Positions 20,445 through 55,453 are shown, counted from the stretch's first letter. The stretch is DNA of 64,000 bases from Mobula hypostoma (GCF_963921235.1 NC_086097.1:85686001-85750000), one strand, 5' to 3'. The notes: generated from the sequence alone by a model not told the origin. Translations and numbers: made by a program.

Positions 20445-23400
20445 TATGTCCTCATTAACAACCTGTCAGTGTATTAAAACAGATTGTAGTTATGAACTTC
20501 TTGATTTCATTTGTTTGTTTCAATCCATTGTGTGAAAACAGAGACCAACTCACCAAACTGCTCTTAGAAGCATTACTCTTGTAATGAGTATGAATTTAAT
20601 TTTAACCCACAACAACATGAGCATGTATCACCTACAATAAAAGGAAATATGGATGTATTATTATCAAATCTCTTGAAAAGTTAGATCTATGCACATCCAG
20701 GGATAATCAAGGGGTAAGTAGATCCTAAGTAAATAGACACATTACAAGACTCTGTGATTAACTACCCTGCACTAAACTGGGAATTAGATGTCACAACCAA
20801 GAACATCAATAAAAGCCTGTGTGCTTTTGTAGCAAAGCTGCCTTATTTTTGTCTTGCCTTTAATTCAGCAATGGTTTCTCCAATTCATTGATCAATGATG
20901 TGTTAAAAATCAACTAAAGTTAAAATCTATGTCCCAAGACAAATTCATTCCAAGTATATTGTCCAGGACTGATTAAATCGAAGGAGGAATCATGCCATGC
21001 ATTCAAACAAAAACATATTCTACAAAGATGTTAAGAGTAAAAAAGTTCCTTTTTATGTATCAAATTCAATCATTAATCCAGAGAGTACCATTGCAATGTT
21101 TAAGCACATGCTCATCAATTATTGGTTTTAGAACTATATAGAAAATTAATTGGATTAATTGAAACAAGATTTGCAACTGATTTTTAATGCAGGAAACTTT
21201 GCAGGATTACTTCAGGTTCTAGGTTCCAAAAGGGGATGAATACCAGAATTCTGCTGGAGCAGTGAGGTGCTCACACTTGCCATTCCCCTGTCTATTAGGA
21301 TCACACCTATCTGATTTCGATCTTCCAGCAGCAACTTGGTTCATCAAGCTTCTCTAACATACATATCAACACAAAAATATTCAAAAAGCTAAAAATTAAA
21401 CATACTGTTCAAACTTTAAAAAAATAAATAAATAAAAACTCAAAAACTATTAATAAAATTAATGTAATTAATCCTCCTCCCCTAAAAATGTAAATTACAT
21501 GGAACAGGTTCATTTCTCTCCTAAGCTCACTGCTCCAGGGTCAAAGGTCAGGATTTCCAATGTCACAGCTGGAAGAACTGTAAACATTTGGCATTTCAGC
21601 ACTGCAATCCATGAGGACATCAGAGTTTAATCAGAATGACAGCAGCAAGGAACTTGGGAAGTTTCAGTCTACTGAATTCACCTGTGCTTTACACAGGAGC
21701 CCTAATCTTCCTGCTGCCATATTGAAAATACCAACCATTAAACACATAATGTTGGCTTTGCCTAGCAAAGTCCAGCCCAATAAACACTTTGCACAAAATT
21801 ACAACCAAGCATAACGGATTATGTGCAAGATAGTTTTCAATGCAGCTAAGTGTAAGATGGCAAATGTTAAAGGAAATTTCATATTCTTCAAATAGTGAAT
21901 ATAATCATTATAATCAGATAGCTAGGATATAAGGAGGAGAATTTTTGCAATGGCCATACAGAGCCATGATTAGATGGGTACTGGTTTTTGGCCTCATCCC
22001 CTACAAAGGAAAATTTGTCCTTTTATAAAGCACAACACAAATTCACCAGGATATCATATAGGCCTCCAGGATTCTACTACAGCTCAGAGAAATCACAAAA
22101 TAGGGTTGCTTCCATGGAATAGAACATAGAACATCACACCACAATACAGGTCCTTTGGCCCATGAGGTTGTGCCAACCACTTATCCTCCTCCAAGATCAA
22201 TCTAATACTTTCTTCCTATATAGCCCTACATCTTTCTATCATCCATATGTCTATCTAAAGAGCCTCTTAAGTATCTAATGTACCTGCCTCTACCAATACC
22301 CCTGGCAGCACATCCCACACACCCCCCACTCTCGGTGCAAAAACATCTAACTCTGACCCTATACTTCCCTCAATCACCTTAAAATTATGTCTGTCATATT
22401 TGTTTCTGGCTGTCCACTCTATCTATGCCTCTCATCATTTAATCACTTCTATCAAGTCACCTCTCATCCTCCTTCACTCCCAAGAGAAAAGCATTAGCTT
22501 GCTCAGCAATTCCTCATAAGACATGCTCTCAAATTCAGGCAGCATCCTGGTAAATCTCCTCTGCACCCTCTCTAAAGCTTCCACATCCTTCCCATAATGA
22601 AGTGACTAGACCTGACTACAATCCTCCAAGTGTGGTCTAACTAGAGTTTCAAGGAGCTTCAACATAACCTTGTGGGTCTTGAACTCAAACCCCTGACTAA
22701 TGAAGGCCAACACACCATATGCCTTCTTAACAATCCAATCAACTTGCATGGCAATTTTGAGAGATCAATGGAAGTAGATGCCAAGATCCCACTATTCCTC
22801 CACACTGCTAAGAATCCTGCCATTAATCTTGTACTGTGCCTTCAAGTTCAACCTTTCAAAGTGTATTACTTCACACTTTTCCAGATTGAGCTCGAGTTTG
22901 CACTTCACAGTGCAGCTCTGCACTCTATCAATGTCCCATTGTAACCTACAACAACCATCAATATTATCCACAACTCCACTAACTTTCATGTCATTGCAGA
23001 CATGCTCAGCCACTCTTCCACTTCCTCATCCAAGTCATTTATGAACATCACAAAGAGCAGGGTCCCAGAACTGATGCTTGCCGAGCATAACTTGTCACCG
23101 ACTTCCAGGCAGAATATGCTCCATCTAGTTCCACCCTCTGCCCTCTGTGGGCATGCCAACCTGAATCCATGCAGCCAAGTATCCCTGGAACCCATGCCTT
23201 CTGATTTTCTGAATGAGCCTTCCATGCGCAACTGTGTTGAACACCTTTCTGAAATCCATATGAATCACATTCACTGCTCTACCTTCATCAATTAGTTTTC
23301 TCACTTCCTTGAAGAATCTCAGGAAGCGTGACTTGACCTTCTTAAGCCCATGCTGACTATCCCTAATAAGACTATGCTTATCCAAATGGTTGTAAGTTCT

Positions 23401-23815
23401 GTCTCTAAGAATCCTCTTCAATAGTTTGCCACGACCAATGTAATACTCACTGCTCTATAATTCCCATGATTATCCCTATACCTTTCTTGAACAAAGCTAC
23501 AACATTTGCCACCCTCCAGTTTTCTACCACTCCTATGGCCAGTAAGGAAGTAAAGAACATCGCCAAAGATGCAGTAATATCTTCTGTCACTTCCAGTAGT
23601 AACCTAGGATATAACCCAACTATCCCAGTTTTTTAAAAGTTTCAACACATCCTCTTTCTTAATGTCAATACGTTTCAGCATATTGTCATTATACACGCTC
23701 CTCATATTCATCAAGGTTCCTCTTACTGCTGAATACTGAAACAATGTATCAATTAAGGACCTCACACAACATGCTGGAGGAACTCAGCAGGTCGGGCAGC
23801 ATCCGTGGAAATGAA

Positions 23816-23853
23816 CAGTCAACGTTTCAGGCTGAGACCCTCCGTCAGGACTG
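23816..23853 (-). ncRNA. Minimal type I hammerhead ribozyme-like motif (core variant)
   Basis: Minus strand: CAGTC-CTGACGG-A-GGGT CTCA GCCT-GAAA-CG-TT-GACTG. Stem I CAGTC/GACTG is perfect; there is one core substitution. Confidence 0.55.
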
Positions 23854-23854
23854 A

Positions 23855-23892
23855 GACTCCTGACGAAGGGTTCTGGCCCGAAATGTTGACCG
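23855..23892 (+). ncRNA. Minimal type I hammerhead ribozyme-like motif
   Basis: CTGACGA (23860-23866)-A-GGGT TCTG GCCC-GAAA (23880-23883)-TG-TT-GACCG. Core and stem II are intact; stem I is partly decayed. Confidence 0.55.
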
Positions 23893-24999
23893 TTCATTTC
23901 CACAGATGCTGCCTGACCTGCTGAGTTCCTCCAGCGTGTTGTGCATGTTGCTTTGACCCAGCATCTGCAGAGTATTTTGTGTTTAATTAGGGACCTCTCC
24001 CACATCATCTGATTCCAGGTACGTTTCCTCTTTTATTCCTGTTTGTCCCGCCATCACTCTAATCATCTTCCTGTTCTTCACGTGGATTTAGAACTCCTTG
24101 GGTTTTCTTAACCCTACTCACCAAGGTTTTCTCATGACTCCTTCTAGCTCTCCTAAGTCCCTTCTTAAGCTCCTTCCAGGCTATCTTACAACTTTCAAGG
24201 ACCCTGTCTAAGCCTTGTTTCCTAAATCTTAGGTGTACTTCCTTCTTCCTCTTGACAAAATGTTCCACCTTTACCCTACTGTCCTTTTCCTGCCTGAAAG
24301 AGACAAACCTATCCAGAACCCCATACTGGTGCTCCCTGAATAACCTCCACATTTCTGTTGTGTGTTTCTCCAAGTACATGTGTTTCCAGTTTATGCTCCC
24401 CAGTTCCTGCCTAATAGCACCATAATTCACGCAACTCCAATTAAATAGTTTTCACGCTCATGTTCAAGTTCAATTGTCATTCAACCATACATGAATATCG
24501 ATGAACATAGCTGTTCACCAACAAACCAATGAATTAGATTTGCAGCATTCCACAGCACCAACATTCAAAGGGATCTTATGATCAGGAGAAAAGCGACTAA
24601 GGTGACCACTCAATGTCAGACTGCACATCTCCTTCATGCACTGATGCCTCTCTGTTGAAAGGGGCATCACAATGCACTCCAAGTCCAGCTCCTTCAGTTT
24701 CTCCACCGCTAATGGGGTAGATCTGCAGTACTTTAAGTTCTTAATGTCCAGCAAGGTGTCGTGATAATAAAAATATGTTTAAAAAAGATAGTAACACCTT
24801 TGGTTGACCATGTAGAAGCCATCTTACCAGAAGCTCCTATCCCTGTCCAAGGCAATGCTAAATGTCAGGAAGCTGTGGTCACTGTTTCCAAAATGTCCAC
24901 CCACTGAGAGTATGTAATTTGACCATTTTCAGTGCCTAATTCTAGATCCAGTATGACCTCTCTGGTAGGCCTATCCACATATTCTGTGAATAGTAGAGG

Positions 25000-26150: not shown

Positions 26151-26503
26151 TCCTTTGATTTTCTTTGCAATACCAATAATATGAAAGGAAAAGACATCTT
26201 TGAAATGCATTCAGATAATTTTCCTTTATTAATATATGTACTTCTGACCTAACAAAAAAGACAGCACTGCTGGAGTTAATTCTGAGAAAATGAGCCAGGC
26301 TAAATGACGTGTCAATGGGGGAACATCTAAGGGTTTAGAACAGCCAAGGATCCAGACTGTTCTGAAATAAATGTATTCAAATGGATAAGAGCCAACGTCA
26401 ATTGGATGAGAACAGATCCGGTCCAGTTAAACTGAAAGCGAACTTGCAGGCATACTGCAATTGAACAATCAAGACCCAGTGGAGCTGTTTGCTTGTAGTC
26501 AAG

Positions 26504-26602
26504 CAACACACACAAAATGCTGGAGGAGCTAATCAGGCCAGGCAGCATCTATGGAAAAGAGTAAACAGTTGACGTTTCAGACCGAGATCCTTCATCAGAA
26601 TT
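26504..26602 (-). mobile_element. Penelope-like pLTR fragment with hammerhead-like motif (26566-26602)
   Basis: Same family as 23764. Minus strand reads CTGATGA-A-GGAT CTCG GTCT-GAAA-CG-TC-AACTG, with an intact core and a GUC triplet. Confidence 0.65.
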
Positions 26603-26679
26603 CCTTCAATGAGAGGGAAGGGAAATTGAACCGAGATGCTGGGATGACCAATAAATAGGCAGCATCCATGATTAGGGAC

Positions 26680-28999: not shown

Positions 29000-29095
29000 C
29001 AGTTCTAATGCAGGGTCCTAGACCTGAAACGTTAACTGTTTCTATTTTTACTGATGTGGCCTGAACTGCTGAGTGTTTCCAGTTTTTTTTCTGTT
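29000..29095 (+). mobile_element. Older Penelope-like pLTR fragment with decayed hammerhead core
   Basis: CAGTT-CTAATGC-A-GGGTCCTAGACCT-GAAA-CG-TT-AACTG, followed by GATGTGGCCTGAACTGCTGAGT as in the other copies. Confidence 0.55.
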
Positions 29096-36509: not shown

Positions 36510-37185
36510 AAGAGAGACACAAGAGACTGTAGATCCTAGAATCTGAAGCAACAATGGAATGGTTGGAGGAACACATGCGTAAAGCAGCATTTGTGGGGGG
36601 AAAGGAACGGTTGACATTTCAGGTCCTGTTGCGGTGTCTTGAACCACATCAACAAATTAGCATTCACTTTGAGAGTGCTAGCGTATAAAAGCAAGGATAT
36701 AATCCTGAGGCTTTACAAGGCATTGGTCAGACCACACTTGCAATATGGTGAGCAGATTTGGGCCCCTTCCCTAAGAAAGGATGTACTAGCATTGGGGAGG
36801 GTCCAGAAAAATGATCCCAGGAATGAAAGGATTAACCATGAAGAGCATTTGACAGGAGTTTACATGCTGGAGTTTAGAAGAATTGGTGTTGGGAAACCTA
36901 TCAAATATTGAAAGGCCTAGATCGAGTGGACATGAAAAGGGTGTTTCCTATAGTGGAATTTATTGCCACACACAACTGTGGATGCCAAGTTTTTGGATAT
37001 ATTTAAAGAGGAGTTTGATAGGCTCTTGATTCAAAAGGGTGTCAAAGGCAGGAGTTCAATCATGATGAAATGGTGGAGCAGGCCTGATTGGCTGAATGGC
37101 CTAATTCTGCTCCTATGTCTAAGTATTCTTTCTGCCCCACAGACACTACTTCACCCACTTAGTTCCTCCAGCAGATTGATCATTC
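36510..37185. mobile_element. Decayed Penelope-like palindromic arms enclosing a degenerate plus-strand CR1 fragment (~36650-37120)
   Basis: Left arm GGAGGAAC...GCAGCATTTGTGGGGG and right arm CCCCACAGAC...AGTTCCTCCAGC. Internal ORF LRLYKALVRPHLQY. Confidence 0.6.
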
Positions 37186-50764: not shown

Positions 50765-50897
50765 ACATCCTGAAGAAGGATCTCAGCCCGAAATATCAAC
50801 TGCTTACTTATTTCCATAGATGCTGCCTGACCTGCAGAGTTCCCCCAGCATCTTGTGTGTGTTGGTTTGGACTTCCAGCATCTGCAGATTTTCTTGC
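50765..50897 (+). mobile_element. Penelope-like pLTR copy with hammerhead-like motif (50770-50802)
   Basis: CTGAAGA-A-GGAT CTCA GCCC-GAAA-TA-TC-AACTG, then AGATGCTGCCTGACCTGC...CCAGCATCTGCAGATTTTCTTG as at 23904-23984. Confidence 0.65.
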
Positions 50898-55364: not shown

Positions 55365-55453
55365 TAAATACAAAAGATTCTAGAGATGCTGGAAATCTTG
55401 GTCAACACACACACACAAAATTCTGAAGGATCTCAGCAAGTTAGACAACATCT
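55365..55453 (-). mobile_element. Penelope-like pLTR 3' part, cut off by the LTR-like element
   Basis: Reverse complement of the segment at 50819-50897 (GATGCTGG...CAACACACACAAAA...CTCAGCA...CATCT). Confidence 0.6.

Follow-up and report, generated by a model that had tools for sequence, protein, structure and literature searches.

A 221-bp hairpin insertion in Mobula hypostoma as the likely truncated 3'-end product of a Penelope-like element

Introduction

What kind of element leaves behind a 221-bp, almost palindromic insertion with a hammerhead-like motif in each arm, and is such a hairpin itself mobile or only the product of another element? The question is raised by a locus in Mobula hypostoma, located within C1:85686001-85750000 of the 3.48-Gb genome analysed; this whole stretch of 64 kb is called the window in the following. 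A first-pass annotation had attributed the insertion to retrotransposition by a Penelope-like element (PLE) and had taken the insert for a distinct non-coding, ribozyme-bearing retroelement. Canonical endonuclease-bearing PLEs and complex insertions were reportedly described by Evgen'ev and Arkhipova in 2005. In the literature, we found no description of the PLE family treated here, nor of hairpin PLE stubs in cartilaginous fishes. According to the relevant part of Craig et al. (2021, PMC8557442), the signature of a PLE insertion includes an inverted 5'-truncated copy and a one-sided tail of 30-40 bp, and the same tail length is given in a section of PMC11167929.

Structure of the insert

The insert occupies positions 23764-23984 and is bracketed by 13-bp direct repeats (Table 1). 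That these represent a target-site duplication (TSD), as the first-pass annotation held, is confirmed by the empty site. Seven of 11 host paralogues run uninterrupted across the insertion point, with a single target copy and no insert, and the remaining four have no match to the right flank. Because the flanks are contiguous with one target copy in the seven paralogues, insertion and TSD are considered genuine. The host, taken for a CR1 in the first-pass annotation, is a repeat whose flanks (23560-24130) have at least 606 candidate copies of 70-82% identity, and an RVT_1 fragment (E 2.3e-5, below the Pfam cut-off) is located in it on the minus strand (23125-23454).

Within the insert, the unit is preceded by an inverted partial copy of itself, a further feature that had been recognized correctly. 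The arms compared (23765-23850 and 23858-23943) comprise 86 nt each, lie 7 nt apart and are 87% complementary; the 11 mismatches over these 86 nt are all transitions. The outer end of the inverted arm lies approximately 41 nt from the PLE 3' end, and with each arm reaching to about 127 nt the copy is nearly symmetric. The right-hand tail matches the tails at the 3' ends of two PLE loci (L052 and L060) and the one on an inverted copy at a third (L061, see below). For either strand, the predicted RNA fold is a single long hairpin (-158/-159 kcal/mol, z approximately -20 to -21) whose stability was reached by no shuffled sequence. A transcript across the insert would mainly be a long double-stranded hairpin.

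Table 1. Positions and properties of the insert's parts, its target site and its two motif copies, in window coordinates.
Feature	Position	Strand	Description
TSD, left copy	23751-23763		AATTAAGGACCTC; direct repeat, and host paralogues with a single site
Inverted arm	23764-23850	-	87 nt; reverse complement of the PLE 3' region, without tail
Minimal-hammerhead-like motif	23816-23853	-	CAGUC-CUGACGG-A-GGGUCUCAGCCU-GAAA-CG-UU-GACUG; fails the descriptor
Junction/filler between the arms	23851-23857		CTGAGAC, 7 nt
Minimal-hammerhead-like motif	23855-23892	+	GACUC-CUGACGA-A-GGGUUCUGGCCC-GAAA-UG-UU-GACCG; fails the descriptor
Forward arm	23858-23951	+	94 nt; 5'-truncated PLE 3' region, up to the ...GTTGC boundary; relatives of 94-97% identity
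PLE 'tail'	23952-23984	+	33 nt; right end only
TSD, right copy	23985-23997		AATTAGGGACCTC; direct repeat

Copies of the family in the genome

A search of the genome with the 221-bp insert gave at least 6041 first-look candidates, and the 40 that were scored are all full length and 82-88% identical to the query. The uniform two-arm shape of these copies is a matter of ascertainment, since the query spans both arms. TSDs of 10-17 bp, each of a different sequence, flank 27 of 30 extracted copies. The right end of the family is constant (...ATTTTGTGTTT), and the left end shifts by a few bases (GCAACAC.., CAC.., ACAC..). Because the TSDs vary, the right end is constant and the left end shifts, the mode of insertion is, judged from these ends, target-primed retrotransposition and not that of a MITE. 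A preference for particular targets was not apparent, as 77 distinct 3' flanks gave four weak pairwise matches and a shared offset was seen in a single 37-nt pair only.

Queries with the last 100 and the last 60 nt of the 3' end recovered 49 unique loci of 94-98% identity. In these same-subfamily loci the forward copy ranges from 61 to more than 1400 nt, and of the 29 loci in the 100-nt sample, 12 have copies that extend into the sequence encoding the C-terminal part of the L061 ORF (tblastn). With the 100-nt query the 5' ends seemed to cluster at the hammerhead, an impression that did not hold, since forward arms of 61-106 nt are equally common with the 60-nt query. An adjacent inverted arm is present in about 17 of 48 loci of the two samples, a count that, like the other counts of such twins, is approximate in that a few nested cases (for example L100) are misfiled. 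The outer end of the inverted arm lies 33-82 nt from the 3' end in 17 twins, and in none of them does this arm include the tail. In seven of 16 twins the 5' reach of the inverted arm exceeds that of the forward arm (for example 129 versus 64, or 423 versus 127), and in the other nine it is no longer than the forward arm. At the junctions, the arms of a twin overlap by 1-7 nt or are separated by filler of up to 16 nt. Among the two-arm copies, 28 of 30 could be anchored, and the sequence between the fixed arm anchors, spanning 37-64 nt, differs in all 28; truncation points and fillers vary, and some arms enter a C/T-rich UTR. All inspected copies are single or inverted, and a tandem head-to-tail arrangement was not seen among them.

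At six position pairs, non-CpG changes that are diagnostic of subfamilies recur as mirror images in the two arms, for example in 13 mirrored versus two and zero one-sided cases. Such mirroring is expected if both arms are copied afresh from an RNA of one subfamily at each insertion. At a variable dinucleotide in the helix II loop, too, most copies carry the same type in both arms. The window copy is an exception: its arms are of the TCTC and TTCC types, respectively (23829-23840 versus 23868-23879). This mixed type hints that one insertion event drew on two template RNAs.

The window also contains five older, diverged single-arm fragments of PLE 3' ends (50767-50896 and 29000-29087 on the plus strand; 26498-26606, 55368-55453 and 36518-36625 on the minus strand), several of which retain the CUGAUGA...GAAACGUC build. 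Several such fragments in one 64-kb window imply that PLE debris is very dense in this genome. Elsewhere, young PLE stubs lie inside older PLE 3' units, as at L100 (C50:94557292-94560350) and L080, and this nesting shows successive waves of activity.

Link to autonomous Penelope-like elements

Upstream of older single-unit copies, blastn revealed no extended homology in the flanks, and the link to an ORF came only from loci that encode GIY-YIG domains. A GIY-YIG profile search of the genome gave 27350 first-look candidates, and 149 of the 150 that were scored exceed the Pfam cut-off. According to a family profile search, 17 of 30 GIY-YIG loci contain the right-arm unit of about 130 nt. In six of these 17, the unit is located at a constant offset on the same strand, approximately 300 bp behind the end of the ORF, and is preceded by a C/T-rich 3' UTR. 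Two loci retain open reading frames. The ORF of L061 (2678-5290, plus strand) encodes 871 amino acids with a GIY-YIG domain (23.6 bits, cut-off 22.6) and an RVT_1 match (E 3.4e-4) below the cut-off. That of L062 (2989-5343, plus strand) encodes 785 amino acids with RVT_1 and GIY-YIG matches as in L061. These open ORFs suggest that the element family may have been active recently.

The attribution of the insert to PLE retrotransposition agrees with the TSDs, which are variable (10-17 bp, seen in 27 of 30 copies), and with the identity of the unit, which is the 3' end of RT- and GIY-YIG-encoding elements; the linked ORFs that the first-pass annotation had envisaged do exist. The layouts of the larger loci also correspond to those published for PLEs (in part of PMC8557442). 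At L061, the forward 3' end terminates at ...GTGTTGC without a tail, and the tail is borne by a 5'-truncated inverted copy, about 700 bp long, that abuts the 5' side; L063 has direct terminal repeats. With canonical endonuclease-bearing (EN+) PLEs, as characterized in the same part of PMC8557442, the family shares an ORF for RT with a GIY-YIG domain at the C terminus (L061 and L062, by domain matches with RVT_1 below the cut-off), heavy 5' truncation, an inverted 5'-truncated copy that abuts the forward copy, a tail at one end (33 nt here) and a hammerhead motif in the terminal repeat region. Together with the variable TSDs, this is the insertion signature of EN+ PLEs. There is no difference in kind; the window copy is an extreme miniature of approximately 127 + 87 nt that lacks an ORF. 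The insert belongs to a known kind, namely insertions of EN+ PLEs in which minimal hammerheads are combined with a tail on one side and a 5'-truncated copy in inverted orientation.

In a contig of 621 kb, one strand carries GIY-YIG matches at intervals of about 4.9 kb (G000 C130:559000-576000; L035-L037, L047, L051 and L064). This repetition looks like a head-to-tail array of PLE copies.

The hammerhead motif

In its family form, the motif reads CAGUC (or UAGUC)-CUGACGA (or CUGAUGA)-A-GGGUCUCGGCCC-GAAA-CG-UC (or UU)-GACUG and has all published sequence features of PLE minimal hammerheads. The CUGANGA and GAAA boxes and the U-H site occur in the family form and at 20 sites in 254 kb. Helix I would have 5 bp (CAGUC/GACUG or UAGUC/GACUG), and helix II has 4 bp and a tetraloop. 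The base between 9 and 10.1 is unpaired (a bulged A), 10.1-11.1 is a G-C pair (within GGG...CCC), and 15.2-16.2 is palindromic (CG). The local MFE structure of an intact copy includes helices I and II. Metazoan PLE minimal hammerheads, as treated in the pertinent part of Cervera and De la Pena (2014, PMC4209133), share the boxes, the U-H site and probably the helix I of about 4-5 bp, and also the unpaired base after A9, G10.1-C11.1 and the palindromic 15.2-16.2 (ACGU), which leads to a dimeric helix III; these last three features lie outside the authors' descriptor. A difference concerns helix II, for which 6-8 bp are reported there in several PLE families. Judged by these sequence features, each arm contains the minimal type I hammerhead of the element itself.

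With a regular-expression version of the published descriptor, 254,266 bp of sequence yielded 28 hits that fall on 20 sites, all of them within this PLE family, compared with a mean of 0.05 over twenty second-order Markov simulations. The motif copies adjacent to ORFs are mostly intact. Few arms of the hairpin copies pass the descriptor (three of 30 on the plus strand and five of 30 on the minus strand), largely because of CpG decay. Among 129 motif copies, approximately 97% of the non-CpG core positions are kept versus about 93% of the stems, and the variation consists mainly of CpG decay and one subfamily dinucleotide; such core conservation would neither support nor oppose selection within this genome.

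The Rfam hammerhead families (Hammerhead_1, Hammerhead_3, Hammerhead_II, HH9 and HH10) gave no match at E <= 10 in 23600-24150, nor in an intact PLE-linked copy (L057, 2040-2240). This failure on the window copy says little, because the intact copy was missed too, and the Rfam models appear to be blind to hammerhead forms without helix III. The descriptor recovers the family, but neither arm of the window copy passes it. The statement of the first-pass annotation that each arm contains CUGANGA...GAAA applies to the plus-strand arm, which has the boxes and the U-H site (predicted cleavage after 23887); the junction has removed the 5' strand of helix I here, leaving 2 bp, and 15.2-16.2 is U-G. 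It does not apply to the minus-strand arm (CUGACGG), where helix I has 5 bp but A9 of the core is G and 10.1-11.1 is G-U. Likewise, transcripts of either strand would indeed contain a motif, but a damaged one. Compared with PLE minimal hammerheads, the window copy has lost core or stem positions on both strands, and both of its motif copies are predicted to be inactive.

A further comparison is that with the Anolis PLE Poseidon PAc. In the part of PMC11167929 on its hammerhead, the build CUGANGA-N-G...C-GAAACGUC is the same as in the family described here. The PAc hammerhead overlaps the start of the ORF, however, whereas that of the present family follows the stop codon at a distance of approximately 300 bp, with about 95-130 nt between it and the 3' end.

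Contigs from four runs of four organisms cover the element only, without its flanks, and their coverage peaks at 23904-23941 and at the mirror positions 23771-23808. In these contigs, the block GATGCTGCC.GACCTGCTGAGTTCCTCCAGC at the two peaks is covered far more deeply than the hammerhead part; conservation within the PLE 3' region may be highest in this block, which perhaps binds protein. The loose ends of the contigs extend upstream into ...GGGTCTCGGCCCGAAACGTCGACTG..., so that the unit, with the 3' half of the motif, occurs in other data sets as well.

Alternative explanations

Several other origins of a hairpin with these properties were considered. The long inverted arms would suit a DNA-transposon MITE or a hairpin small-RNA gene, and Rfam miRNA models gave matches to mir-1791 (37 bits, gathering 75) and mir-1253 (30 bits, gathering 103). 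Scores so far under gathering are typical for any long hairpin, and these matches were rejected as artefacts together with sub-threshold RRE and other hairpin look-alikes. A MITE with terminal inverted repeats to both ends and a fixed short TSD, which the first-pass annotation had itself named as a possible counter-reading, is excluded: an unpaired 33-nt tail is present on the right side only, the left end is variable, the TSDs vary between 10 and 17 bp and in sequence, and the arms are PLE 3' sequence. The chance that the insert is a MITE or a small-RNA gene is thus practically negligible. Another idea is that of a self-standing, non-autonomous retroelement, with a palindromic master of about 220 bp that is transcribed and copied whole by PLE enzymes. 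The best 40 genome matches to the 221-bp query, all full length and two-armed, would fit such a master, and so would the family consensus, which is a perfect palindrome at 94 of 95 positions. However, the uniformity arises from choosing hits to the full query, and the 3'-end queries revealed forward-only copies, unequal arms and ORF-entering copies of the same subfamily. A master should also have bequeathed its junction, which is different in every anchored copy, and mirrored subfamily changes would be unexpected if the two arms evolved separately. Because the junctions all differ, the arms are unequal and copies of the same subfamily enter the PLE ORF, the hairpin is, as far as its structure tells, made anew at each insertion and not a replicating unit. 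The notion of a distinct ribozyme-bearing retroelement is abandoned on the same grounds, the unequal arms having been seen in samples unbiased for arm length, and a hairpin master is regarded as very improbable.

If the hairpin arises at insertion, a single cDNA primed at the end of the tail might also fold back on itself and be copied into an inverted arm. This snap-back scheme agrees with the near symmetry of the window copy, with arms of about 127 nt each, and explains the nine twins in which the forward arm is at least as long as the inverted one. It fails for the seven with a longer tail-less arm, which the fold-back of a tail-bearing cDNA cannot yield, and a tail-less cDNA that folds back cannot create a tail. 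The different subfamily types of the two window arms at the helix II loop, which hint at two templates, also speak against it, and we consider snap-back unlikely. A separate doubt concerns the motif, which might not be a working ribozyme here but, within the PLE 3' region, a conserved structure of the RNA or a site where protein binds. The downstream block at 23904-23941 is more widely common than the motif, Rfam hammerhead matches are lacking, and metazoan minimal hammerheads cleaved poorly in vitro (within the part of PMC4209133 concerned). Furthermore, hammerhead mutants of the Anolis PLE left insertion unaffected, and no RNA-seq reads ended at the cleavage site (from a portion of PMC11167929). 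On the other hand, the family form shows all features of minimal hammerheads, including those outside the published descriptor, and the Anolis motif, whose build is the same, undergoes cleavage when protein is present and responds to C3 and G8 mutations in a hammerhead-like manner (same portion). A purely structural or protein-binding role is therefore judged to be the less likely option, although it carries more weight than any of the other alternatives.

Proposed origin of the insert

The preferred reading is that the insert is a dead-on-arrival, severely 5'-truncated copy of an autonomous PLE, in which the 3' end is present twice, head to head, and for which each strand of a staggered cut likely primed reverse transcription (rough probability 0.85). 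The PLE ribonucleoprotein would nick the two target strands 10-17 bp apart. One 3'-OH would then prime a cDNA from an outer start site, with the tail included, and the other would prime a second cDNA from an inner start site that lies on the tail boundary or inside it. The two cDNAs would abort after approximately 90-130 nt and be joined by microhomology or a few filler bases. In the full-length PLE RNA, the hammerhead motif may serve dimeric or protein-assisted self-cleavage, as has been proposed. Dual-strand priming, which we infer from the end structures alone, is favoured because the tail-less arm is the longer one in seven of 16 twins, an outcome that is impossible by self-priming of a tail-bearing cDNA.

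The scheme has a biochemical counterpart. The Anolis PAc protein cleaves and extends both strands in vitro, its hammerhead cleaves only in the presence of the protein, and reverse transcription starts at two adjacent internal sites whose interval corresponds to the tail (as set out in part of PMC11167929). Cleavage of both strands and two start sites fit the pattern of one tail per twin, which is read here from genomic sequence only. Beyond the window, the thousands of miniature twins in this genome might then record PLE integration by two cDNAs, each primed from one strand of the same staggered cut; an outer start that includes the tail would always be paired with an inner one that lacks it, and two template RNAs would sometimes be involved. 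This generalization is tentative, and we place it slightly below an even chance.

The proposed route partly resembles the twin priming of L1, in which, as Ostertag and Kazazian are said to have described in 2001, the second DNA strand primes a second cDNA and an inverted 5' part results. Both cases share the cDNA primed from the second strand and the inverted part. In L1, however, the two parts are adjacent stretches of one RNA, whereas the two arms of the insert overlap, each of them starting close to the 3' end, so that the same region is copied twice. Another group to be compared are the metazoan non-LTR retrozymes, reportedly the subject of work by Cervera and De la Pena in 2020. Like the insert, they are non-coding, hammerhead-bearing and related to PLE terminal regions, but they form head-to-tail tandem repeats that are thought to give rise to circular RNAs (compare the part of Li, Clavereau and Pollet, 2026, bioRxiv 10.64898/2026.07.22.740005, on non-coding, hammerhead-bearing non-LTR retrozymes). 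No direct repeat of the unit, and thus no head-to-tail tandem structure, was found at the window locus. The insert consists of one inverted pair flanked by a TSD of its own, and it is a by-product and not a replicating unit.

Significance

Taken alone, the insert is ordinary repeat debris with broken ribozyme copies, and as one of many natural end-products of PLE integration it is of modest value. Two practical points follow for annotation: long, perfect-looking hairpin 'families' can be by-products of truncated PLE insertion and need not be replicating elements or small-RNA genes, and PLE minimal hammerheads escape the Rfam models. The restriction to one tail per twin, arms of unequal length and junctions that vary between copies are all in line with the priming from both strands and the two start sites of the Anolis protein in vitro, and they could be mined genome-wide to test the model of both-strand priming. 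Only this angle is mildly new, namely that PLE stubs provide a natural read-out of such priming. If the generalization to the twins of this genome is true, the asymmetry of the dimeric PLE ribonucleoprotein would be readable from genomes alone.
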